Shown piece by piece: positions 12,834 to 48,420 of a stretch of 64,000 nt of DNA. The first letter of the stretch is position 1. Each line of letters opens with the position of its first letter. Source of the DNA: a virus (Duplodnaviria; Heunggongvirae; Uroviricota; Caudoviricetes); IMG/VR virus record IMGVR_UViG_3300044475_000054, positions 1-64,000 of that record; one strand, 5' to 3'. Both the position numbers and the translations under genes were made by a program. The notes under the pieces were generated by a model. That model saw only the letters and a list, made by a program, of their open reading frames with translations. It did not search any database and was not told the DNA's origin.

Positions 12834-13039
12834 TGAAGTATTTTGATGGTGTTAACAATTTGTACAAGGTCGCTGAAATGTCTCTTGAGGACATGAAAGC
12901 GTTTCAGTTACAACAACTCAACAGGCTGGATATACTACGTAAAGAGTTACAGCAAACACGTTTGAAACTAGAGTTAGAGATTGTAGATTTGCAATGTGAT
13001 GTTAATACTGTTCAGAGGTTGATGAGAGGTGTAAAATGA
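12833..13039 (+). CDS. hypothetical coiled-coil protein
   Basis: ORF in the packed block. Confidence 0.45.
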   Translation: MKYFDGVNNLYKVAEMSLEDMKAFQLQQLNRLDILRKELQQTRLKLELEIVDLQCDVNTVQRLMRGVK

Positions 13040-13323
13040 ACATTAAAGAATATAAATCAGAACTTGGTAAACTATATCAATCTAAACGAGAAGAAGCTCC
13101 ATTACAGAAGATTGTATTTGAGATTTATAGTTTGTTTAAGTTTTGGATTGAGAGTGGAGAGATGTTGCCAATTAGCATTTCTGCTAAGGATTATCAACGA
13201 TTAACAGACAATCAAATTGAGTTGGTAATTATTCAATTAGCTGACAAAGGTTGTAAAGTTGAATATGTGATAGAAAAACGTATTAATAGTGAAAACAAGT
13301 TTGTTCTTGTTGATTTAGTTTAG
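13036..13323 (+). CDS. hypothetical protein
   Basis: ATGA overlap. Confidence 0.45.
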   Translation: MNIKEYKSELGKLYQSKREEAPLQKIVFEIYSLFKFWIESGEMLPISISAKDYQRLTDNQIELVIIQLADKGCKVEYVIEKRINSENKFVLVDLV

Positions 13324-13331
13324 GAGTTATT

Positions 13332-13604
13332 ATGAAAACAATTAACTTTTCATTTAGAGACAAAGATGGTGAAGTGTTATTAAACACTCACTTGGTTGTG
13401 CATCAAGGTATGAACTGGATAGGTTTAGAAGAAGCTCTTTCTGATATGATTTCAGATATTACAGGTAAAAGAGAAGACGCTAGTGCTGCTATTTTGTGTG
13501 ATCAGTGGTTAAAGGTTAAAGAATTTCCTAACGGAATGCATTTCTTCATCAATTACAGCAATTATTGGGGTTTTACTTCAGCTTATTTATTTAGAGAAGA
13601 ATGA
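13332..13604 (+). CDS. hypothetical protein
   Basis: RBS taggagttattATG. Confidence 0.5.
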   Translation: MKTINFSFRDKDGEVLLNTHLVVHQGMNWIGLEEALSDMISDITGKREDASAAILCDQWLKVKEFPNGMHFFINYSNYWGFTSAYLFREE

Positions 13605-13900
13605 TTATGAAATTCATATCACAAAACAACACATACGAATTTGACAGTATTGATTTTAAGAACGACTTAGTTGCTCTATATATTGACAATCAGTATACAG
13701 TTTTTAAGTTTGATGGTGATGTAGAGTTCTTCAGGGATGGAGATGGTACTGGAGCAATATGGGTTGATTTCTCACATGATATTACTGTAGAATTAGTACA
13801 TGAATTAAGTGATGATAACTTAGTCCTACTTAACTTTAAAGAAGTATATATTATTGAGTGGATTGCTGAACAAATTTATAAGGAGAAGTGTGATGAGTAA
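13601..13900 (+). CDS. hypothetical protein
   Basis: ATGA overlap. Confidence 0.45.
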   Translation: MIMKFISQNNTYEFDSIDFKNDLVALYIDNQYTVFKFDGDVEFFRDGDGTGAIWVDFSHDITVELVHELSDDNLVLLNFKEVYIIEWIAEQIYKEKCDE

Positions 13901-14135
13901 CTTAGATAAGAGTTTTGACGATTGGTTAAAGGAACAAAACCAACCAGCTAGTAATTTCTTAAGACGAGAGGCTTATGAGGCAGGACAACAATCTAGACAG
14001 AAAGAGATTGATCGACTTAAAGCGATTATTACAGAAGCTTTAGCTGTGTATGATAGACCAATGTGTGATGAAACTGCATTGTATCAAAGAGATGACGATA
14101 TTTACCACATCCTTACGGAAGATAAATTTGTTTAA
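13893..14135 (+). CDS. hypothetical protein (start at ATG 13893 behind aaggagaag)
   Basis: In-frame ATG with a strong RBS. Confidence 0.45.
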   Translation: MSNLDKSFDDWLKEQNQPASNFLRREAYEAGQQSRQKEIDRLKAIITEALAVYDRPMCDETALYQRDDDIYHILTEDKFV

Positions 14136-14219
14136 TTTACACAAAACACTGCAATTAATAGTTGTGGTGTTTTTATTTACCTGTTATATTTACATCATTG
14201 AACAACAAGGTTTAAACAA

Positions 14220-14588
14220 ATGAATATCTTTATCTTAGACACAGATGTTAAGAAGAATGCACAATATCACGCTAACACTCACGTTGTTAAACAGGTGCTT
14301 GAATATTGTCAATTACTCTCAGGAGCTTGTCATTTGCAGGGTGTTGCTGTTGATGGTATGTATAAACTAACTCACAAATCGCATCCAAGTATGAAATGGG
14401 TCTTAGAAAGTAAGCAGAACTTCGACTATTTATTATCTCTTACAGAAGCTTTATTAGAAGAATATACACATCGTTATGGTAAAGTACATGCTTCATCAAG
14501 ATTGATTCCTTTATTTAAATCTGTGCAAAATAACATCCCTAAAGGTTATAATAAACTAACTAAGTTTGCTATTGTAGTGAATAAATAA
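14220..14588 (+). CDS. conserved phage protein of unknown function
   Basis: The N-terminus (MNIFILDTDVKKNAQYHANTHVVKQVLEYCQLLSGA) resembles a recurrent phage-family N-terminal block that I recall but cannot name from sequence alone. Confidence 0.5.
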   Translation: MNIFILDTDVKKNAQYHANTHVVKQVLEYCQLLSGACHLQGVAVDGMYKLTHKSHPSMKWVLESKQNFDYLLSLTEALLEEYTHRYGKVHASSRLIPLFKSVQNNIPKGYNKLTKFAIVVNK

Positions 14589-14708
14589 GTAAGTAATACA
14601 CAAGATGCTGTAACAGATTATCGTAAGTTGTATATGACATCTAAACGTGATTTGTGTAAGTGGAAGAATCGCAATACACCAGAATGGTTTGTTTAAGGAG
14701 GTTATAAA

Positions 14709-15137
14709 ATGATTTTTTACAGAGTTGTGAATCTTGTGACGGGTAGAGGAGCATACTCCCACACTGACTATTGTGATCAAAACAACATAGACTGCAAGTG
14801 GCGACATGAGTTAGTTAATATGAGTTTAAGTCATGGCTCTACTGTAAATTCAAGAAGAACCCCTTGTTTGTATGAGGATGATCTGCTATATAGTGGTTGG
14901 TCACACACCATAAAAGAAAGTACAGAAGGTAACTATCAAATCTTTTGTTTTGAATCTATTAACCATTTTAAGAGTTGGTTTTCACATGAAGAACGTGAAC
15001 TTTTGAATGATGCTGGATTTAAATTAATGTCTTTTGAATGTGAGGTTTATAATCTTTATAGAAAACAGGCGACAGTTCCACTAAATGTGTTTAAACATTG
15101 CAAAGTTTTAGACGTGACAAGTTTATTAGGATATTAA
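14709..15137 (+). CDS. hypothetical protein
   Basis: RBS aaggaggttataaaATG. Confidence 0.55.
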   Translation: MIFYRVVNLVTGRGAYSHTDYCDQNNIDCKWRHELVNMSLSHGSTVNSRRTPCLYEDDLLYSGWSHTIKESTEGNYQIFCFESINHFKSWFSHEERELLNDAGFKLMSFECEVYNLYRKQATVPLNVFKHCKVLDVTSLLGY

Positions 15138-15151
15138 TCAGGAGATTTAAA

Positions 15152-15427
15152 ATGTGGAATGTTATTGATGAACAAGATGATTTATCATTGCCTCAAGTAG
15201 ATTATGGTTACTTCTTAGTGACTTTAGAATATTATGAAGGTGGAGGTGGACGAACAGTAGATAAAAGCTTTTATACGAAAGATAGGGAGTTTGCTAAACA
15301 AACACACGGGTTGTACAGTCGTAAACATCAAGGTAAGCAATCTGTTCATTTTCAAGCTGCTGGTACAACCTACAGAGTATTAGCTTGGATGGGAATCCCT
15401 GAAGCTTACAATGGAGATTTAAAATGA
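15152..15427 (+). CDS. hypothetical protein (start at ATG 15152 behind caggag; the track ORF starts at TTG 15098)
   Basis: RBS caggagatttaaaATG. Confidence 0.45.
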   Translation: MWNVIDEQDDLSLPQVDYGYFLVTLEYYEGGGGRTVDKSFYTKDREFAKQTHGLYSRKHQGKQSVHFQAAGTTYRVLAWMGIPEAYNGDLK

Positions 15428-15582
15428 CGTATGTTAAACAGTTTCGTGGTAAAGAGGATGACATTTTTACAGAAATTAATAATCACGCTTTAGCTTATGG
15501 TGTGCGAATATTAGGGACTGACACAGTGTTCTATAAGAACGACTTTTACACTATCATTGTAACATTTGAGAAAACGGTATGA
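15424..15582 (+). CDS. small hypothetical protein (52 aa), not in the ORF track
   Basis: ATGA overlaps at both ends fill the gap between 15427 and 15579. Confidence 0.35.
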   Translation: MTYVKQFRGKEDDIFTEINNHALAYGVRILGTDTVFYKNDFYTIIVTFEKTV

Positions 15583-15797
15583 GAGATAAAACAGATACAT
15601 ATACACAAGTACGTTATTTCTACAACAAGGAGACAAACGCAGTTTATAGAATTGTTAATAACTTACGTATATCAATGTATTATCGAAGTAAGAAGTCTTT
15701 TGGTGTTTGTAGCAGTAGCGCTAGAGATATATTAGATGCTTACTATCAAGGTAGGTTTGTTCTTGTTAATGAGAGAGATTTGGAGAAGTTTTTATGA
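15579..15797 (+). CDS. hypothetical protein
   Basis: ATGA overlap. Confidence 0.45.
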   Translation: MRDKTDTYTQVRYFYNKETNAVYRIVNNLRISMYYRSKKSFGVCSSSARDILDAYYQGRFVLVNERDLEKFL

Positions 15798-16054
15798 AAT
15801 ATGATAATGGTTTTAAGATTGAAGATTTCACAGATATTAAAGATGGAATGTCTTTTGATAGGAAGGTAACATTTTATCATGATAAGACTGGTGAAATTGA
15901 AGCTGAATATTACTATTCAGAAGGTAAAGTTAATTACTTACAGAGTTGGGGTTTCTCCAAAGATAGTTTAGGTGAGTTACGTAAATCTAAAGCACATAAA
16001 ACTAAGAAGCCTTTCTTTTCATTACAACAAGGTTGGTTTGGGTTTTCCAAATAA
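15794..16054 (+). CDS. hypothetical protein
   Basis: ATGA overlap. Confidence 0.45.
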   Translation: MKYDNGFKIEDFTDIKDGMSFDRKVTFYHDKTGEIEAEYYYSEGKVNYLQSWGFSKDSLGELRKSKAHKTKKPFFSLQQGWFGFSK

Positions 16055-16213
16055 TCATACAAGGTTTTGATATTAAAGTTTGAATTGATGATACTTTAAA
16101 TCATATACGATTTTCATTAGTAATATCAAAACCTTACAATATTTTAATTCATAAATGGAAACAGTTTTACATAGCTGATTTCTGTAGAAAAGTTTAATTA
16201 GAGGAGTAAAGAT

Positions 16214-16994
16214 GTGAAAAGAGAAGAACAATTAGCTTTGAAGAAAGCTGAATACGAAGGTAAGATTTATCCTAGTAATAGTTATGGTGATGTAGTTGTG
16301 TTAGAGTATGTTAACTCCAGAGATGTTACCATTAAATTTTTAAACACAAGAAACATTCGTAAGACAGGAACATCCGAACTAAGGAAAGGTGAGATCAGAG
16401 ACAATGAAGATTTTCCAGTATATAAGGTGGGGGTTATGGATATACCTAACGAACTAAGAAGAGGTCAGCCTGCACCTAAAGAATATAGTATTTGGAATGG
16501 AATAAGACAACGATGTTATAATGAGAATACCAGAGAAACTTCCCTCGTATGAGGGTGTTGAGATGTCGGAGAATTTTAAATTCTATTCTTACTTCAAAGA
16601 ATGGTGCAACAAACAAATAGGTTTTGGTAATGAAGGGTGGCATTTAGATAAAGATATTTTAGTAAAAGGAAATAAAATCTACTCTGAGGAGACGTGTTGT
16701 TTTGTACCTGCTGAGATTAATACTTTGATATTGAGGGCTGATCGAATCAGGGGAAAATACCCTATTGGGGTATACCACGACACTTCTAAAGTTCATAAGA
16801 GGTTTTCGGCAAGAGTAAGTAAGGGCGGAAAATACAAACGTTTTGGAAGTTACTTAACGCCTGAAGAAGCCTTTTATGTGTATAAAAAGGAGAAAGAGTC
16901 TCACATTCAGGAGATAGCTAATAAGTGGAAAGAACAAATTGATCCACGAGTGTATGAAGCGCTAATGAACTGGACAATTGAAATTACAGACTGA
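16214..16994 (+). pseudogene. HNH homing endonuclease (NUMOD4-like N-terminus, HNH, C-terminal AP2 domain) split by a +1 frameshift near 16525-16552
   Basis: Two overlapping ORFs. 16214-16552 ends ...YSIWNGIRQRCYNENTRE. 16521-16994 continues the family signature (SYEGVEM..ENFKFYSYFKEW, HLDKDILVKGNKIYSEETCCFVPAEIN, AP2-like GVYHDTSKVHKRFSARVSKGGKYKRFGSYLTPEEAFYVYKKEKE). GTG start with gaggag RBS. Confidence 0.6.
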
Positions 16995-17022
16995 GGGCTT
17001 CGGCTCTCTTTTTATTTAGATA
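16993..17022 (+). terminator. rho-independent terminator (gagggc-ttcg-gctctc hairpin, then T5)
   Basis: Tetraloop hairpin followed by tttttattt. The same hairpin recurs at 55210. Confidence 0.5.
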
Positions 17023-17525
17023 AACTACCCTAACAACTAACGTTTTTTTTGATATAAAATATCTCCGAGGGGTGAAAGTATTTAGACCTGTTTGTTGGTA
17101 AAAGTTTTGAAAAATAGGTAGTTACATTCGGACGATCAAAAACTAGAAAAGTTTTAGAAAATTTTATCATCTAACCCCAGACCTAGCTTTTGGTAGGTTT
17201 TCAGGTATCAACATTTCAAAACAGATAACTTTAAGTAATGAATAATTAATAAATGTATAACCAATCTAATAATTACAAAAATACTTAAAAAGTTATTGCA
17301 TTTCAAAAATAAATTAATTAAAATCCCGCGCCCGTTTCATCTATATAAACTTGCTTAACTGTTTTAAAATCTTTCGCTACGCACTAATGATAAAACATAA
17401 GGTTCAAAACACTGGCACAGCACCAAAACCAACAATAGAACAGATATACGTTGTCTTTTTTAAATAAAGATTTATTTGATATTCAGACACTTATTAAAAA
17501 CTTTATAATTAATTTAAAATTATTA

Positions 17526-17554
17526 TTGACAGTGTTTTATAAATTTACTAATAT
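17526..17554 (+). promoter_or_regulatory. sigma70-like promoter ttgaca-N17-taatat
   Basis: TTGACA 17526-17531, TAATAT 17549-17554. Sits after a 600-bp ORF-free region. Confidence 0.5.
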
Positions 17555-17604
17555 GAACTCATCGGAAGCAATCAAGCTAAGCCGAACAAATAGGAAATAA
17601 AGAT

Positions 17605-17964
17605 ATGTCAAACTTCACTCTTAACTATGTTTTAGATTCAATCAAATCAGACGTACAAGATGTATTACGTAACTTGTCACAAGATGAATTGAATGAAATG
17701 ACAGCAAAAGACATATGTGACCTTTTAGATGAAAACAATTATGGTGCTCCAGATGTAATTTACTATGCGGACGGTTGGGAGATTGTAGCAGGAAGTTCTT
17801 TTAATGACTATGACGCAGAGTGTTTAGACTTTTCAAACTGTGAAAACTCATTAGATTGTATTATGGAAGAAGCTCGTGGTAAGGTTGATTCAGCATACTA
17901 TACCAATCGTGAAGAGATCGCAGGAGATGTTTTGGATGGTTTACAGAATGAACCACAAGATTAA
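17605..17964 (+). CDS. highly acidic small protein, candidate DNA-mimic (Ocr/ArdA-like) anti-restriction protein
   Basis: 119 aa with about 28 Asp/Glu against 6 Lys/Arg. It is the first gene after a strong promoter. RBS aataggaaataaagatATG. Confidence 0.35.
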   Translation: MSNFTLNYVLDSIKSDVQDVLRNLSQDELNEMTAKDICDLLDENNYGAPDVIYYADGWEIVAGSSFNDYDAECLDFSNCENSLDCIMEEARGKVDSAYYTNREEIAGDVLDGLQNEPQD

Positions 17965-18117
17965 TTAAATAATTTTTAAACTAGGTCAAGATATACGTTT
18001 TATTGATTAACTAAGTTTTATTTTAGATGCAATTTACTCTTACGTGAGTTGCATCACTAAATGAAATATTGTTAAACGACACAAAGTAGCAAGGTAAGCT
18101 TGCAAGGGTAGAGAACT

Positions 18118-18468
18118 ATGAACAAACCAACACAACACGAATTAAACGCATTATTAACGAGTGTGCAAGTCCATTCACATATGGGTGCGTGGGCACGACA
18201 ACAAAGACAACAAAGTTTGTTTATTAAAACTTTGTTTGAAGACGGTACTTTTTTAATTGAAGAGTTCGAGCCAGCACAAAAAGAAGTATTCTATCGTGTT
18301 AAGTGGGAAGATAACGAGCAATATAGTGTAATGGTTGATGTCCCAAACAAATACGATTACCACAAAGAAGCTTCACTTGGTAAAACAAGTATTATTAAGC
18401 GTGAGATTGCTTTCATGAAGGCGCACAGTTTAAGTTTTACTTCTATTGAAGTTGCAGAAGGAGCTTAA
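18118..18468 (+). CDS. hypothetical protein
   Basis: RBS gtagagaactATG. Confidence 0.5.
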   Translation: MNKPTQHELNALLTSVQVHSHMGAWARQQRQQSLFIKTLFEDGTFLIEEFEPAQKEVFYRVKWEDNEQYSVMVDVPNKYDYHKEASLGKTSIIKREIAFMKAHSLSFTSIEVAEGA

Positions 18469-18471
18469 TCA

Positions 18472-18681
18472 ATGCTAATCATCAATCGTTATGAGAATAG
18501 GCAGACTGGTAAAGTGACAATACAAGCGCATGTATTAAAAGGTAAAAAGGTATTAAAGTCATATGCTCCATGTTGTCCCAGTTTAATTGATATGATTGCA
18601 CAGCACTATAGCTTTTATTTGTTGTGTGATGTAGACTACTATAGCAAGTTAGATGTTGTTAATATTGTTAATGTTAAATAA
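18472..18681 (+). CDS. hypothetical protein
   Basis: ORF 4 nt after the upstream stop. Confidence 0.45.
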   Translation: MLIINRYENRQTGKVTIQAHVLKGKKVLKSYAPCCPSLIDMIAQHYSFYLLCDVDYYSKLDVVNIVNVK

Positions 18682-18706
18682 AATTGAGCAAAGCTCACAA
18701 AGGAAA

Positions 18707-18943
18707 ATGAAAATGACTTATAAGATTGAACAAATTGTGTTAGAAAATGATAAAGCTTTTTGTATTGATGGTTTAGACGGTTACTACTACTGTTATGAGA
18801 TTGGTGTAACTCACTCAACACGAAAAGCAACTATATCTAAAACATACGGTTTAGAGTACACAAAAGAAAAACACTTTGTGCCACGTTGGGGAAATCCTAG
18901 CACTACAGATAAAACAATTGATTTAAGTATAGATAAAATTTAA
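18707..18943 (+). CDS. hypothetical protein (start moved to ATG 18707)
   Basis: RBS aaaggaaaATGaaaATG. The track ORF 18653 overlaps the upstream gene. Confidence 0.4.
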   Translation: MKMTYKIEQIVLENDKAFCIDGLDGYYYCYEIGVTHSTRKATISKTYGLEYTKEKHFVPRWGNPSTTDKTIDLSIDKI

Positions 18944-18974
18944 TTGTTTACTTTCAGCATGAATATGTTTTACA

Positions 18975-19202
18975 ATGTGTTCATGCAATAAAGTAAATAT
19001 GAGTAATTACAGGTACATCAAAATGGTATACACAAGTAAAGAAGTCTTAGAACAATACAACAAAGGAAAGTCTATTGTATTGTTTACAAGTAAAGATACT
19101 ATCCTTTTAAAACAAGGTGTATCTTGTTCAGATACGGTAAACGAGATACTAAGCACTGGGTTATATCGTCATAATCAGGTGACACATGGGAGAATCTTGT
19201 AA
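18975..19202 (+). CDS. hypothetical protein
   Basis: ORF. The start may be an internal ATG. Confidence 0.4.
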   Translation: MCSCNKVNMSNYRYIKMVYTSKEVLEQYNKGKSIVLFTSKDTILLKQGVSCSDTVNEILSTGLYRHNQVTHGRIL

Positions 19203-19549
19203 TGAATATCACAAGCGGAACATCGACAAAATACTCTTATTACAACTGGTATAAAACGCATAATTATTGGCATGATGCAAACAAAGAATTGTCTAAGACT
19301 TTAACAGACGCTTTGGTTAAATTTGCTTTAGATCGTTTAGATAGCGATATTGTTGAAATGATAGTAACTAAAGGTTGGATATGTCATATTGATAGACTTT
19401 GTAACGATACCAATGAAACATTGAACGATAGTACATACCAAATTAACTTTACCAACAAAAACGGTGTACGTATTAGTATAGACGGTGTACTATTGAAAAA
19501 GTACAGACCGTTCTTAGATCATGGGTTATCTTTGGATGAAGGACAGTAA
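19202..19549 (+). CDS. hypothetical protein
   Basis: ATGA-type overlap. Confidence 0.45.
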   Translation: MNITSGTSTKYSYYNWYKTHNYWHDANKELSKTLTDALVKFALDRLDSDIVEMIVTKGWICHIDRLCNDTNETLNDSTYQINFTNKNGVRISIDGVLLKKYRPFLDHGLSLDEGQ

Positions 19550-19550
19550 A

Positions 19551-19742
19551 ATGAACATTAAACGAATCAAACAACGTACTAAACTACGTGCACAATACGA
19601 AGTAAAAGACATGTTATCAACTAAAATATTTAGCACAAAACACAACACATATACAGTTGGGGATATGATTACACTTACAAGCTGTATGGTTATACTCACT
19701 TTGTTCGCATATGTATCTTTGATGGTAGGTATTCCAAAATGA
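19551..19742 (+). CDS. hypothetical protein with C-terminal TM helix (start at ATG 19551 behind gaagga)
   Basis: In-frame ATG with RBS. C-terminus ITLTSCMVILTLFAYVSLMVGI is hydrophobic. Confidence 0.4.
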   Translation: MNIKRIKQRTKLRAQYEVKDMLSTKIFSTKHNTYTVGDMITLTSCMVILTLFAYVSLMVGIPK

Positions 19743-19985
19743 GTATTAAATCAAGCGTATTAGAACACGGTACACATACAGACAAAAGTATCCAGTAGTA
19801 AAAACAATGGCAGCACTACAACACGTATGCTTTATTCAGCAAAGAGAATGACGCTGTAATTATTTCAGTAGATGAAGCACATGAACATGATTTTGTTGGT
19901 CAAAAGGTTGAAGATGTACATGCCCCTGAGTGGGTAGTTGTAACAGGTTTTGAAATTGTTATTAAAGGATGATGGGTGAATAGAG

Positions 19986-20141
19986 ATGAATAAAGAACAA
20001 TTGTTAGATAAGTTATTAGATGCAATAGACAGAGATTACAATCAATATTGGGATGAACATATGGTCTTGGGTATGTCTTACAGTGAGTTGATTGAAGCTA
20101 GAGAGCTATTACAACAAATTAGAGATGAGGTGAAGACATGA
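19986..20141 (+). CDS. small hypothetical protein (51 aa), not in the ORF track
   Basis: ATG 19986 reads MNKEQLLDKLLDAIDRDYNQYWDEHMVLGMSYSELIEARELLQQIRDEVKT. Its stop overlaps the next start (ATGA). Confidence 0.35.
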   Translation: MNKEQLLDKLLDAIDRDYNQYWDEHMVLGMSYSELIEARELLQQIRDEVKT

Positions 20142-20356
20142 TAAACGTACAAATTAAAGGTGATGTAATACAAGCTCACAATAGCAAAGGTCAATTGATT
20201 GAAGTATTTATTAATCATTGTTCTACAGAAGATCGTATGTATTGGGTTGTTAAGATAGATCATGTAAAACACACAGAAATAGAGGAACACAAATATATAG
20301 GTACATTATGGGAAGATATGAACACCTTAGAAGGTATCTTCATTTGTTTTAACTAG
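20138..20356 (+). CDS. hypothetical protein
   Basis: ATGA overlap. Confidence 0.45.
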   Translation: MINVQIKGDVIQAHNSKGQLIEVFINHCSTEDRMYWVVKIDHVKHTEIEEHKYIGTLWEDMNTLEGIFICFN

Positions 20357-20366
20357 GGGGCATATA

Positions 20367-20555
20367 GTGACTACAGATAAACTTTTACAGAAGATAGAGG
20401 CTTTATTACATGATAACCCAAACATTAGTCATGTTGAAGTATCTTCATTGATCAAGGATATAAAGATAGGCTTAGATAAAGCTTATGTACAAGGACACTG
20501 TGATGGGTATAACAAAGGTTTTAGAACATGCTTAGATATCTATGCCAGTAAATAA
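20367..20555 (+). CDS. hypothetical protein
   Basis: RBS tagggggcatataGTG/ATG region. Confidence 0.45.
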   Translation: MTTDKLLQKIEALLHDNPNISHVEVSSLIKDIKIGLDKAYVQGHCDGYNKGFRTCLDIYASK

Positions 20556-21025
20556 CACATGTTATATAACACCAATAGGGAGCGATTAGCTCCTTTTATT
20601 TATGCCCTTAGTAACTAATAGTATTAATCGCCAGTACAACAAATAACACCCTACAACATAATAAAACATATGCAATCAGCTAATCTTATAATTAGACTCA
20701 TAGTTATATTCTCAATCGTTTATCTATTATCTAGTTACTTATACGACACCTTCTTAATACATACCCATATGCTGCTCTCTTTTGTCTGTTATGTTAACTT
20801 ACTGGATTATTCTTGTTATCCTTATTACCCTGTAGTACGTGTTGTTTAGCTTGACAACCTCAACCTCCTCTACAACTCTCCTCCCTAATAACCTCTACAT
20901 AAGCTACTAACTTCTAGTAAGTGTATATCTACTGGTAAGCTACTACCTATGTAATAGTATGTTATGAATACATAGATGAATGATAACGTGAGCGTAGTGA
21001 TGACTAAATTAAATGAATAAAGTTA

Positions 21026-21054
21026 TTGACACTGTATGAGTAATTAACGATAAT
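21026..21054 (+). promoter_or_regulatory. sigma70-like promoter ttgaca-N17-gataat
   Basis: TTGACA 21026-21031, GATAAT 21049-21054. Confidence 0.45.
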
Positions 21055-21093
21055 GAATGTATTAGGTAACACACAACATAAGAGAGCAACACT

Positions 21094-21294
21094 GTGAACA
21101 TAGAAGCAACTAAGCTACTGTTAGGTAGCAGAGATAAAGCGGAGTACATACTTAAGCATAAACCTTTTGTAGCTACTCACTTCAACACAATGGATGATTC
21201 ATATATAAACAATGTAGAGCCTGAATATGACAGTATCCTGTACATAGACTTGATTGAACTAAGTAGGTATCTTAGAAGTAATAAAGATTGGTAG
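21094..21294 (+). CDS. hypothetical protein (GTG start)
   Basis: RBS aagagag 8 nt before GTG. Confidence 0.4.
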   Translation: MNIEATKLLLGSRDKAEYILKHKPFVATHFNTMDDSYINNVEPEYDSILYIDLIELSRYLRSNKDW

Positions 21295-21682
21295 AGCTAC
21301 ACATACAGTAGTCTTTAGGATATCAACACATCTTAGGGACTACTTTAGACCACTGAGTTGATAGTACAGAATATTTATCTTTAGATATTTTAGAATCATA
21401 AGGAGGTTTAGATTTGGGGGTGTGGGTGCTGTTAAGCAACACTTCTATGATTCTAAGAAATTAAGGAATACCATAAGAGATATTTCTGTAGGTAGTAAAA
21501 CTAAGAAAGATAACAACACTTCTATGAATACAATATTTTTACAAGAAACCTTACAACCACTAGGGTTTAACAATGGAAAGATAACAATAAAATAACAATG
21601 AAAGAACAATAAGTTTGATAGAGATTTTGATACTAATTTTATTGTTAGTTGATGTAGTGCTAGCGGTGTTCTTAGACTGGTG

Positions 21683-21817
21683 TATTATCTCTATTTATTA
21701 TATTTTAGTATGTTGATATTTTAAGATAGTAACTTCTTAGTATTATCTATTTTATTATATACATATAGATATTTTTATTATTCAGTTTATTATCTTTTAT
21801 AGTGTTCTCTATTATCT
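21683..21817. repeat. AT-rich iteron-like array: four copies of TATTATCT (21683, 21741, 21788, 21810)
   Basis: Direct octamer repeats in a 700-bp ORF-free AT-rich stretch in front of the helicase-like gene. Confidence 0.4.
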
Positions 21818-22002
21818 CAAAATAATTTTTAGTATTATGATAAAAACACCTAATCTCTAGTTGTGTAATCTTAGTTGTTGTGTTAAACTTGAGTTAGTAC
21901 GTGACAAAAATAATCTAGTTTCTCCTAAAGAGAGAATTTAGAAATTCGAAAAATGTCACGTTTTTCTTTAGTGCTTAACTTATAAGGAGTATACATACTT
22001 AC

Positions 22003-34193: not shown

Positions 34194-35249
34194 ATGAAAA
34201 CACTCAAATTACGCATAAAAGACAAACACGCAAAGGTGCTAAATCAGATGGCTTCTGAGGTTAATTTTGTCTGGAATTATGTGAACGATTTGGGTTTCAA
34301 GCATCTAAAAAGAAAGGGCGAGTTTCTTTCAGCATACGATATTGCCAAGTATACAAAAGGCGCATCAAAAGAATGCAATCTACATAGCCAAACGATTCAG
34401 GCTGTGACCGAAGAATTAGTCATACGAAGAAAACAGTTCAAGAAAGCAAAGTTGAAATGGCGTGTCAGTAATAAAAAATCAGCTAGGCGTTCATTGGGTT
34501 GGATACCGTTCAAAAAGGTTGCAATCAAATATGCTGATGGCTACGTGCAGTATGGCAAGCATCAATTCAAGCTATGGGATAGCTATGGACTATCAAAATA
34601 CAATGTTAGAACAGGCGCATTTGTAGAGGATAGTCGTGGGCGTTGGTATGTGTGTCTTGTTGTGGATTCACCTAAGCAAGATAAACCAAAGGCAACCAAA
34701 GCAATCGGTATTGATCTAGGCTTGAAAGATGTTGCCACCTGTTCTGATGGTACGGTTGTTTCAAATCCTAAGTTCTATCGTAAATATGAGCAGAAATTAG
34801 GGATTGCTCAAAGAGCAAGAAATAAGGAGCGTGTTCGTGCATTACACGCAAAAATTGCCAATAGTCGTAAAGACCATTTGCATAAAGCAAGTACTATGCT
34901 TGTAAAAAATAATGCTATGATTGTTGTAGGTGACTTGAGTGCTAAAAAACTTGTAAAAACTAAAATGGCGAAATCTGTTTTAGATACAGGATTTTCAGCA
35001 CTCAAAACAATGCTCAAGTACAAATGCGAGAACGCAGGAGTATTGTTTGAAGAAGTCAACGAATCATATACCACCCGAACTTGTAATTTTTGTAGTGGAG
35101 ATACTGGACCACGTGGAATTAACGGTCTTGGAATAAGAGAATGGGAGTGTCGTGACTGCGGTACAGTTCATGATAGAGATGTAAACTCAGCTCTTAACAT
35201 TCTTGCGCTCGGGCATGAGCGTCTAGTAGTAGGAATCCCCTTGCTTTAG
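34194..35249 (+). CDS. tnpB: IS200/IS605-family TnpB (OrfB) RNA-guided nuclease homolog, with an apparent Glu-to-Gly change at RuvC-II
   Basis: OrfB_IS605 layout. RuvC-I AIGIDLGLKD. Central MIVVGDLSAKKL where the family has ivvEdL. Zinc finger CNFCSG...CRDCG. RuvC-III HDRDVNSALNIL. RBS tagaggtttaaATG. Confidence 0.8.
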   Translation: MKTLKLRIKDKHAKVLNQMASEVNFVWNYVNDLGFKHLKRKGEFLSAYDIAKYTKGASKECNLHSQTIQAVTEELVIRRKQFKKAKLKWRVSNKKSARRSLGWIPFKKVAIKYADGYVQYGKHQFKLWDSYGLSKYNVRTGAFVEDSRGRWYVCLVVDSPKQDKPKATKAIGIDLGLKDVATCSDGTVVSNPKFYRKYEQKLGIAQRARNKERVRALHAKIANSRKDHLHKASTMLVKNNAMIVVGDLSAKKLVKTKMAKSVLDTGFSALKTMLKYKCENAGVLFEEVNESYTTRTCNFCSGDTGPRGINGLGIREWECRDCGTVHDRDVNSALNILALGHERLVVGIPLL

Positions 35250-48380: not shown

Positions 48381-48420
48381 GAGGGGTGAAAGTCCCCTCC
48401 TTTGATACTTTTATATTTTA
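48381..48420 (+). terminator. rho-independent terminator gagggg-tgaaagt-cccctc
   Basis: Perfect 6-bp GC stem with a 7-nt loop, then a T-rich tail. Confidence 0.6.

Follow-up and report, generated by a model that had tools for sequence, protein, structure and literature searches.

An open reading frame (ORF) whose 119-aa product is extremely rich in acidic residues, lying behind some 600 bp with no convincing gene, raises two questions: what the protein does and whether the DNA ahead of it is an element in its own right. The original prediction was a DNA-mimicking anti-restriction protein similar to Ocr or ArdA. The textbook example of such a mimic is phage T7 Ocr (gp0.3), which inhibits type I restriction-modification (R-M) and BREX systems broadly and triggers PARIS. 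We analyzed a stretch of 64,000 nucleotides, positions 1 to 64,000 of IMG/VR record IMGVR_UViG_3300044475_000054, referred to below as the window. It is part of a tailed phage of ~90 kb of the Acinetobacter/Psychrobacter type, and its gene products include a large terminase of the T4 type, a portal resembling that of Mu, and a capsid of the HK97 type ("protein E"); a 627-aa protein has 38% identity to a gene of Psychrobacter phage D'Alembert and 27% to one of Acinetobacter phage Phab24. Directly upstream of the terminase/portal block, a plus-strand ORF of 351 aa (34194-35249) matches OrfB_IS605 and the Cas12f1-like TNB domain and is of the TnpB type. From position 1 to ~23,900 the window holds a dense array of small plus-strand ORFs, as is typical of early genes. 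One ORF in this array (14220-14588, plus strand, 122 aa) matches only positions 1-120 of 309 in phrog_624, together with a Pyr_excise (pyrimidine-dimer glycosylase) domain, and may be a truncated gene.

Relatives of the locus were not found when 50,697 phage records were searched for DNA nearly identical to 16900-18500 or when IMG/VR was scanned with the single protein as query; when the IMG/VR scan was seeded with the close alignment (A1), three loci were recovered. Window positions 13,001-22,000 were compared at the nucleotide level with eight loci (L003-L006 and L008-L011) and with Acinetobacter phage TaPaz, and the closest syntenic relative found was L016 (IMG/VR UViG_3300005076_000003). 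The locus is made up of the following features:

16214..16994, plus strand: HNH homing-endonuclease gene split by a frameshift into two ORFs (16214-16552 and 16521-16994)
16993..17018, plus strand: intrinsic terminator of the HNH unit, GAGGGCTTCGGCTCTC followed by a T run (terminator scan)
17019..17362, no strand assigned: spacer rich in AT (GC about 0.26-0.32), without detectable function
17363..17599, plus strand: conserved early promoter/5'UTR cassette, 238 bp, 78% identity to L016/L014
17482..17509, plus strand: upstream promoter-like site, TTCAGA-N16-TATAAT (promoter scan)
17526..17554, plus strand: sigma-70-type promoter, TTGACA-N17-TAATAT (scan and conservation)
17562..17585, plus strand: small stem-loop at the predicted mRNA 5' end, UCGG-AGC...GCU-CCGA (folding; weak)
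17592-17595, plus strand: ribosome binding site (RBS), AGGA, after the stem-loop
17605..17964, plus strand: gene of the hyper-acidic 119-aa product, a candidate DNA mimic predicted to fold like Ocr

The upstream gene is, as predicted, a frameshifted HNH gene. The two ORFs align to adjoining stretches of phrog_953 (positions 165-241 and 242-387), a tblastn search with the HNH homologue of L004 changes frame along the window, and L016 carries an intact homologue of 258 aa (containing RCYNENTRDKLPSYKDVEMSENF), relative to which the window switches frame near 16538; we place the frameshift near 16521-16545. Possible explanations of the split are a pseudogene, a sequencing error, and a programmed shift. 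Across the HNH unit and its terminator (16113-17019), L016 and the window share 76% nucleotide identity, and the terminator closes the HNH unit in L016 as well (22 nt, 95% identity).

From the HNH stop codon at 16994 to the ATG of the next convincing gene at 17605, the gap measures 610 bp. The ORF-free stretch of ~600 bp is present as had been described: there is no ORF of >49 aa between these positions, the gap containing only four ORFs of 32-49 aa, TTG-started or on the minus strand, none of them conserved. Hidden or decayed small genes were rejected, tblastx against all relatives having given no match. From the comparison with L016 we conclude that the gap is a composite and no single functional element: first comes the terminator of the mobile HNH gene, then variable filler lying at a recombination junction, and last the cassette with the conserved promoter and 5'UTR. 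The 344-bp filler (17019-17362) is similar to no relative, including the syntenic L016, which at this position has a spacer of its own of 462 bp and unrelated sequence.

Two sets of signals had been proposed within this spacer. The direct repeats are present, with offsets of 1-2 nt from the predicted positions (AAAGTTTTGAAAAA at 17101 and AAAGTTTTAGAAAA at 17148), but they are at chance level, as at least one 16-nt pair of this quality (14/16) occurs in 39.5% of dinucleotide shuffles of the region. Likewise, the 13-mer described as a terminator half-site (GAGGGGTGAAAGT) is found at 17067 but has no complementary arm there, whereas its second copy, at 48381, belongs to a genuine hairpin terminator (GAGGGG-TGAAAGT-CCCCTC plus a T run); the gap region shares four 13-mers with the rest of the window against 2.6 expected, a number reached by 27% of shuffles. 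On the shuffle tests, both the direct repeats, or iterons, and the half-site were rejected as chance. The gap contains no detectable tRNA, and Rfam gave no hit at the gathering threshold, the sub-threshold matches (GAIT and a fungal snoRNA, E about 0.6) being of the kind expected by chance. In sliding-window folding, 1 of 34 windows was outlying (17200-17319, minus strand, z -3.3), and on refolding of 17195-17325 the z-score fell to -1.6, so that no RNA fold held up on re-test; a noncoding RNA was rejected on these results.

The gap might nevertheless act as more than a promoter region, for instance as a replication origin, a noncoding RNA gene, or a physical genome end from which the Ocr-like gene would enter the cell first, as in T7. 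It has a GC minimum (0.24-0.26) and a locally inverted GC skew at 17100-17700; gaps of 490-860 bp recur directly upstream of the gene in TaPaz, L003, L015, L016, and a Proteus phage; and T7 itself has 925 bp of promoter-bearing noncoding DNA ahead of gene 0.3. We consider this very improbable, since the distal 344 bp is unconserved even in synteny, the repeats and RNA searches came to nothing, only ~100 bp precedes the gene in L004, L005, L008, and L010, and comparable AT-rich gaps are present elsewhere in the window. The terminase also speaks against a genome end: it is of the T4-like Terminase_6 type, which is often associated with headful packaging, and with headful packaging no fixed end would remain. 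The TaPaz record (MZ043613.1) opens inside the homologous gene, leaving pieces at 93405-93703 and 1-153 (L001/L002). The record is just cut there, with ends that overlap by ~85 bp, and gave no evidence of a genome terminus at the gene. The split TaPaz gene is mostly unannotated; only its C-terminal piece of 38 aa has been called (TaPaz_01).

What is conserved in the gap is its gene-proximal part, in which an upstream site, an AT-rich tract, the -35 and -10 elements, a conserved initial transcribed region, and the RBS follow one another. The near-consensus ttgaca-N17-taatat promoter that had been proposed stood up well: it lies at 17526-17554, and its placement is conserved in relatives above chance. 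The -35 hexamer is retained in L004, L005, L008, L010, and L016 and reads TTGCAA in TaPaz, L015, and L003 with the same spacing, and the -35/-10 placement is kept in TaPaz, L004, L005, L008, L010, and L016 amid diverged DNA. In L004, L005, L008, and L010 a related TTGACA promoter lies within the ~100-bp intergenic space. The promoter-proximal part of the cassette is also found in TaPaz, L015, and L003, extending over 199 bp between L015 and TaPaz and ~65-90 bp in the other pairings. The block at 17482-17509 is nearly identical in L016 (TTCAAT...TATAAT) and recognizable in TaPaz and L015, and it is possibly a tandem promoter or an UP-like region. Downstream of the promoter, per-sequence folds place a hairpin around an AAGC/GCUU core in the 5'UTR of every relative, with a z-score that is not significant; the two types of 5'UTR could not be aligned by MAFFT, RNAalifold returned 0 pairs, and no covariation was found.

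The cassette runs, in all cases, up to the ATG of whichever gene comes first in the unit. In the window and in TaPaz this is the Ocr-like gene; in L003, L015, and L016 another ORF (~60-70 aa) directly follows the cassette and the Ocr-like gene is second. The description of the protein as first expressed stands in part, in the sense that the gene is promoter-proximal in a conserved early unit, not in the sense of the first DNA to enter the cell. TTGACA promoters are frequent in the window, where 16 TTGACA-N16-18-TAnnnT sites were observed against 5.7 expected, several of them on the plus strand inside the early-gene array; this enrichment suggests that there are many early units, each with its own promoter. 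Near-consensus plus-strand sites (TTGACA-N17/18-TAnnnT) in the array are at 189, 2415, 4023, 7177, 10401, and 17526. Further downstream, a 64-nt intergenic block (18935-18998) has 92-94% identity in L008, L009, L010, and L011 while the neighboring genes have diverged. It contains a promoter-like site, TTTACT-N18-TACAAT (18947-18976), with an inverted repeat, GCATGAA-N16-TTCATGC, across the -10, and is a candidate conserved promoter/operator.

The composition of the encoded protein is exactly as had been predicted, with 28 acidic residues (17 D and 11 E) against 6 basic ones (3 K and 3 R) and a net charge of -22. Among the 89 plus-strand ATG-started ORFs of at least 60 aa, this ORF (17605-17964) has the most negative charge per residue. 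Several other small ORFs in the window are also acidic (net charge per residue, -0.13 to -0.16), so that in this phage acidity by itself is no sufficient diagnostic. The gene is the only one of the 13,001-22,000 stretch that is recognizable at the nucleotide level (70-79%) in all eight loci and in TaPaz, and the ORFs flanking it are mosaic across relatives. With dN/dS about 0.05 against four relatives (dS being saturated), the protein is under strong purifying selection.

Homologues of the protein are numerous and unnamed. The TaPaz homologue, an unannotated gene, has 68% identity; a search of 5.8 billion proteins returned 394 clusters, of which the best 120 have 73-88% identity and are nearly all exactly 119 aa long; and an exhaustive search of representatives gave 45 clusters at 50% identity, many of 175-195 aa with the homology in the N-terminal part. 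In PHROGs the protein matches phrog_22351 with E 2.4e-14 and 54.7 bits, residues 6-112 aligning to positions 4-119 of the 189 in the profile; this family, labeled "unknown function," also contains the Proteus, Salmonella, and Providencia phage homologues. This profile represents a long, two-domain form, and the window protein corresponds to the N-terminal, Ocr-like domain alone. Matches in phage records come from Proteus, Salmonella, Providencia, and "Escherichia" chi-like siphoviruses and from two Felix-O1-like myoviruses, and every one is named "hypothetical protein"; for ten distant cluster representatives the source names are absent or "hypothetical." Neither the protein nor its neighbors gave a relevant match in Pfam or NCBIfam. 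In Proteus phage ASh-2020a (NC_052980.1; L012, 8255-8824 and 10476-11126), gp16 is a long-form homologue of 189 aa that follows a gap of ~490 bp, and a gene annotated as a "Mom-like DNA modification protein" lies three genes downstream; the surroundings of gp16 may be an anti-restriction neighborhood.

Close relatives share 57 invariant positions, including W58, A62, C38, C79, and C85. Across the whole family, E89 is invariant, D75, C79, and A90 are nearly so, and C85 is common. Although pairwise identity is only 25-35%, every member is acidic (net charge, -13 to -37), and ten columns of the family alignment are at least 70% acidic. Many members carry an extra beta-rich C-terminal domain.

A structure was predicted with AlphaFold2 from a 39-sequence alignment of the family. 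The model (pLDDT 94, pTM 0.83) is all-alpha, with helices at 6-21, 26-31, 34-43, 54-62, and 82-114, and on this prediction the protein would have Ocr helices A-D in the same order, together with the long C-terminal helix. In a fold search, Ocr ranked first among 48,164 chains for two models, with nearly full-length coverage and the same helix order. A Foldseek search of BFVD placed a long family member first and "Protein 0.3" of a Yersinia phage third (probability, 0.91). The Ocr half of the prediction is thus upheld, Ocr being the best PDB match of the predicted structure, but the ArdA half is not: ArdA (PF07275) gave no Pfam hit and was absent from the 60 best fold matches. The ArdA-like reading was rejected, there being neither an HMM match nor a match to the three-domain ArdA fold.

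The link to Ocr in sequence is much fainter. Searched against Pfam-A by hmmscan, the protein matches 0 families at E up to 1, and with the cutoff at 0.1 none of the 39 family members hits PF08684, the Pfam Ocr family, so the family is outside the Pfam definition of Ocr; in a PDB profile search, Ocr appears only at E 5.7. When the family alignment (A3) was compared by hhalign with an alignment of 19 Ocr homologues (A4), the probability was 42% (E 2.6e-4) over 62 columns, confined to the N-terminal half. The alignment pairs MSNFTLNYV with MSNMTYNNV and VIYYADGWEIVAGS with PHYYADIFSVMAS, and it places Ocr F54 on W58 and Ocr A58 on A62. Ocr with F54D/A58E is defective in dimerization (PMC7261183), and H48, Y49, and Y50 of Ocr are at the dimer interface (PMC11317158). 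With the family HMM, genuine Ocr sequences reach 12-17 bits (up to 16.8), against at most 10.4 for ~1,700 shuffled or reversed decoys; in the reverse search, an HMM of Ocr fails to tell the family from decoys. Because the sequence link is weak, though coherent, common ancestry with Ocr is likely but not proven. In the TaPaz paper, in the EVADES preprint, and in literature searches on Ocr and DNA mimics, we found no earlier assignment of this family to Ocr.

Could the likeness to Ocr be convergent, or an artifact of matching small helical bundles, in an acidic early protein that is no DNA mimic at all and serves as a regulator, a chaperone-like protein, or an assembly factor? The failure of the Pfam and Ocr HMMs to pick out the family and the presence of other small acidic ORFs in the window would fit this, yet we think it quite unlikely. 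Convergence would have to produce a first rank among 48,164 chains for two models, with a nearly full-length match and an unchanged helix order, and also independent sequence motifs that align at structurally equivalent places, the N terminus and the dimer-interface helix; size, charge, and early promoter all agree with Ocr as well.

Our preferred explanation, to which we give a probability of roughly 0.6, is that the protein is an early-expressed, distant member of the Ocr superfamily, a predicted DNA mimic that would block type I R-M or BREX. This draws on composition, conservation and purifying selection, a predicted fold matching that of Ocr, a conserved promoter, and position in the unit, and from these we infer dimerization, DNA mimicry, targets, and an anti-restriction phenotype. 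Host RNA polymerase would transcribe the promoter-proximal gene early, from the conserved sigma-70 cassette, and synthesis of the protein would follow within minutes of infection. Small, all-helical, and strongly negative, with the Ocr fold, it would form a homodimer via the conserved YYAD-x-W-x-x-x-A helix, and the dimer would display a DNA-like array of carboxylates imitating a stretch of B-form DNA. The array would competitively fill the groove for DNA binding in type I R-M HsdM/HsdS, and possibly that of BREX PglX-type methyltransferases, and unmodified phage DNA would escape recognition by the host defense enzymes. In Ocr, activity depends on dimerization and on bulk negative charge, not on individual residues (PMC3439906, PMC7261183); the pattern seen in the family, in which charge and the interface helix are kept while most else drifts, fits such a dependence. 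The Mom-like gene near the ASh-2020a homologue and the enrichment of TTGACA promoters in the early array also count in favor of the Ocr-like assignment. Counting against it are the very strong purifying selection, which is unusual in an arms-race protein, and the details of the match: the missing PF08684 hit, the 42% hhalign probability over half the protein, the nondiscriminating Ocr HMM, a structure that is predicted, the lack of a poly-Glu tail, the conserved cysteines, the extra C-terminal domain, and the second place of the gene in L003, L015, and L016.

Some of the same features would suit a protein that has the Ocr fold and mimics DNA but has a different main target, such as RNA polymerase, a nucleoid protein, RecBCD, or another defense system, and that serves host takeover or a different form of counter-defense. 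T7 Ocr binds and inhibits Escherichia coli RNA polymerase (PMC7064336), and DNA mimics are promiscuous (PMC7261183). A host target under high conservation would accord with a dN/dS near 0.05; the cysteines and the optional C-terminal domain distinguish the family from Ocr; and the acidic tail of Ocr, whose residues E107, E111, and E116 contact BrxX, is absent (PMC11317158). Such a shift of target is unlikely in our judgment, as inhibition of type I R-M is the sole function common to all characterized Ocr proteins and the locus offers no pointer to a specific alternative. A broader proposal is possible though doubtful, namely, that TaPaz-like myoviruses, chi-like siphoviruses, and Felix-O1-like phages share a large, unrecognized Ocr clade whose target has diverged from type I R-M. 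Such a clade may be marked by the signature DFS-x-C-x5-C-[VI]-M-x-EA, often with the added beta-domain; its target may be another DNA-recognizing defense or a host protein of Moraxellaceae or Enterobacterales, and the acidic protein could act as a trigger of decoy-sensing systems such as PARIS. On this proposal, the conserved promoter/5'UTR cassette would be a portable "immediate-early" module that receives anti-defense genes.

The protein is best placed among DNA mimics of the Ocr kind, as a member that sequence comparison hides; it extends a known mechanism and reveals no new one. If this is true, there is a branch of Ocr, visible by structure and hidden in sequence, in phages of Acinetobacter, Psychrobacter, Proteus, Salmonella, and Providencia, and Pfam-type profile annotation overlooks members of the best-known anti-restriction fold. 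A family consisting entirely of "hypothetical" proteins (~400 clusters at 90% for the close subfamily and 45 at 50% overall) would gain a testable function, with a bearing on host-range prediction and on the engineering of therapeutic Acinetobacter and Proteus phages. The result is useful for anti-defense annotation and for the biology of Acinetobacter and Proteus phages.

By sequence, Ocr has been recognized almost only in T7-like podoviruses, whereas the present family occurs in ~90-kb TaPaz-like myoviruses, chi-like Casjensviridae, and Ounavirinae, not in Autographiviridae. The T7 Ocr homodimer mimics about 24 bp of bent B-DNA in its shape and its pattern of carboxylates. Structure-based identity to Ocr (PDB 1S7Z) is only 19%, and the poly-Glu C-terminal tail is missing from the window protein; C79 and C85, conserved in the family, are lacking in T7 Ocr, and the beta-rich C-terminal domain of many relatives is not found in Ocr. 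The gene is internal to a long early-gene array, whereas that of T7 Ocr is at a known genome end. ArdA (PF07275; PDB 2W82), from plasmids and conjugative transposons, is an acidic DNA mimic directed against type I R-M and expressed early when the mobile element enters, features that it would share with the predicted Ocr-like mimic. The likeness to T7 Ocr itself extends to length (119 aa against 117 aa), to acidity (28 residues acidic and 6 basic, compared with 34 and 6), to an N-terminal MSN-x-T-x-N-x-V, and to a YYAD-x-(W/F)-x-(I/V)-(V/M)-A helix covering the Ocr dimer-interface positions; as in T7, one or more putative host-type promoters stand at the head of the early transcription unit.
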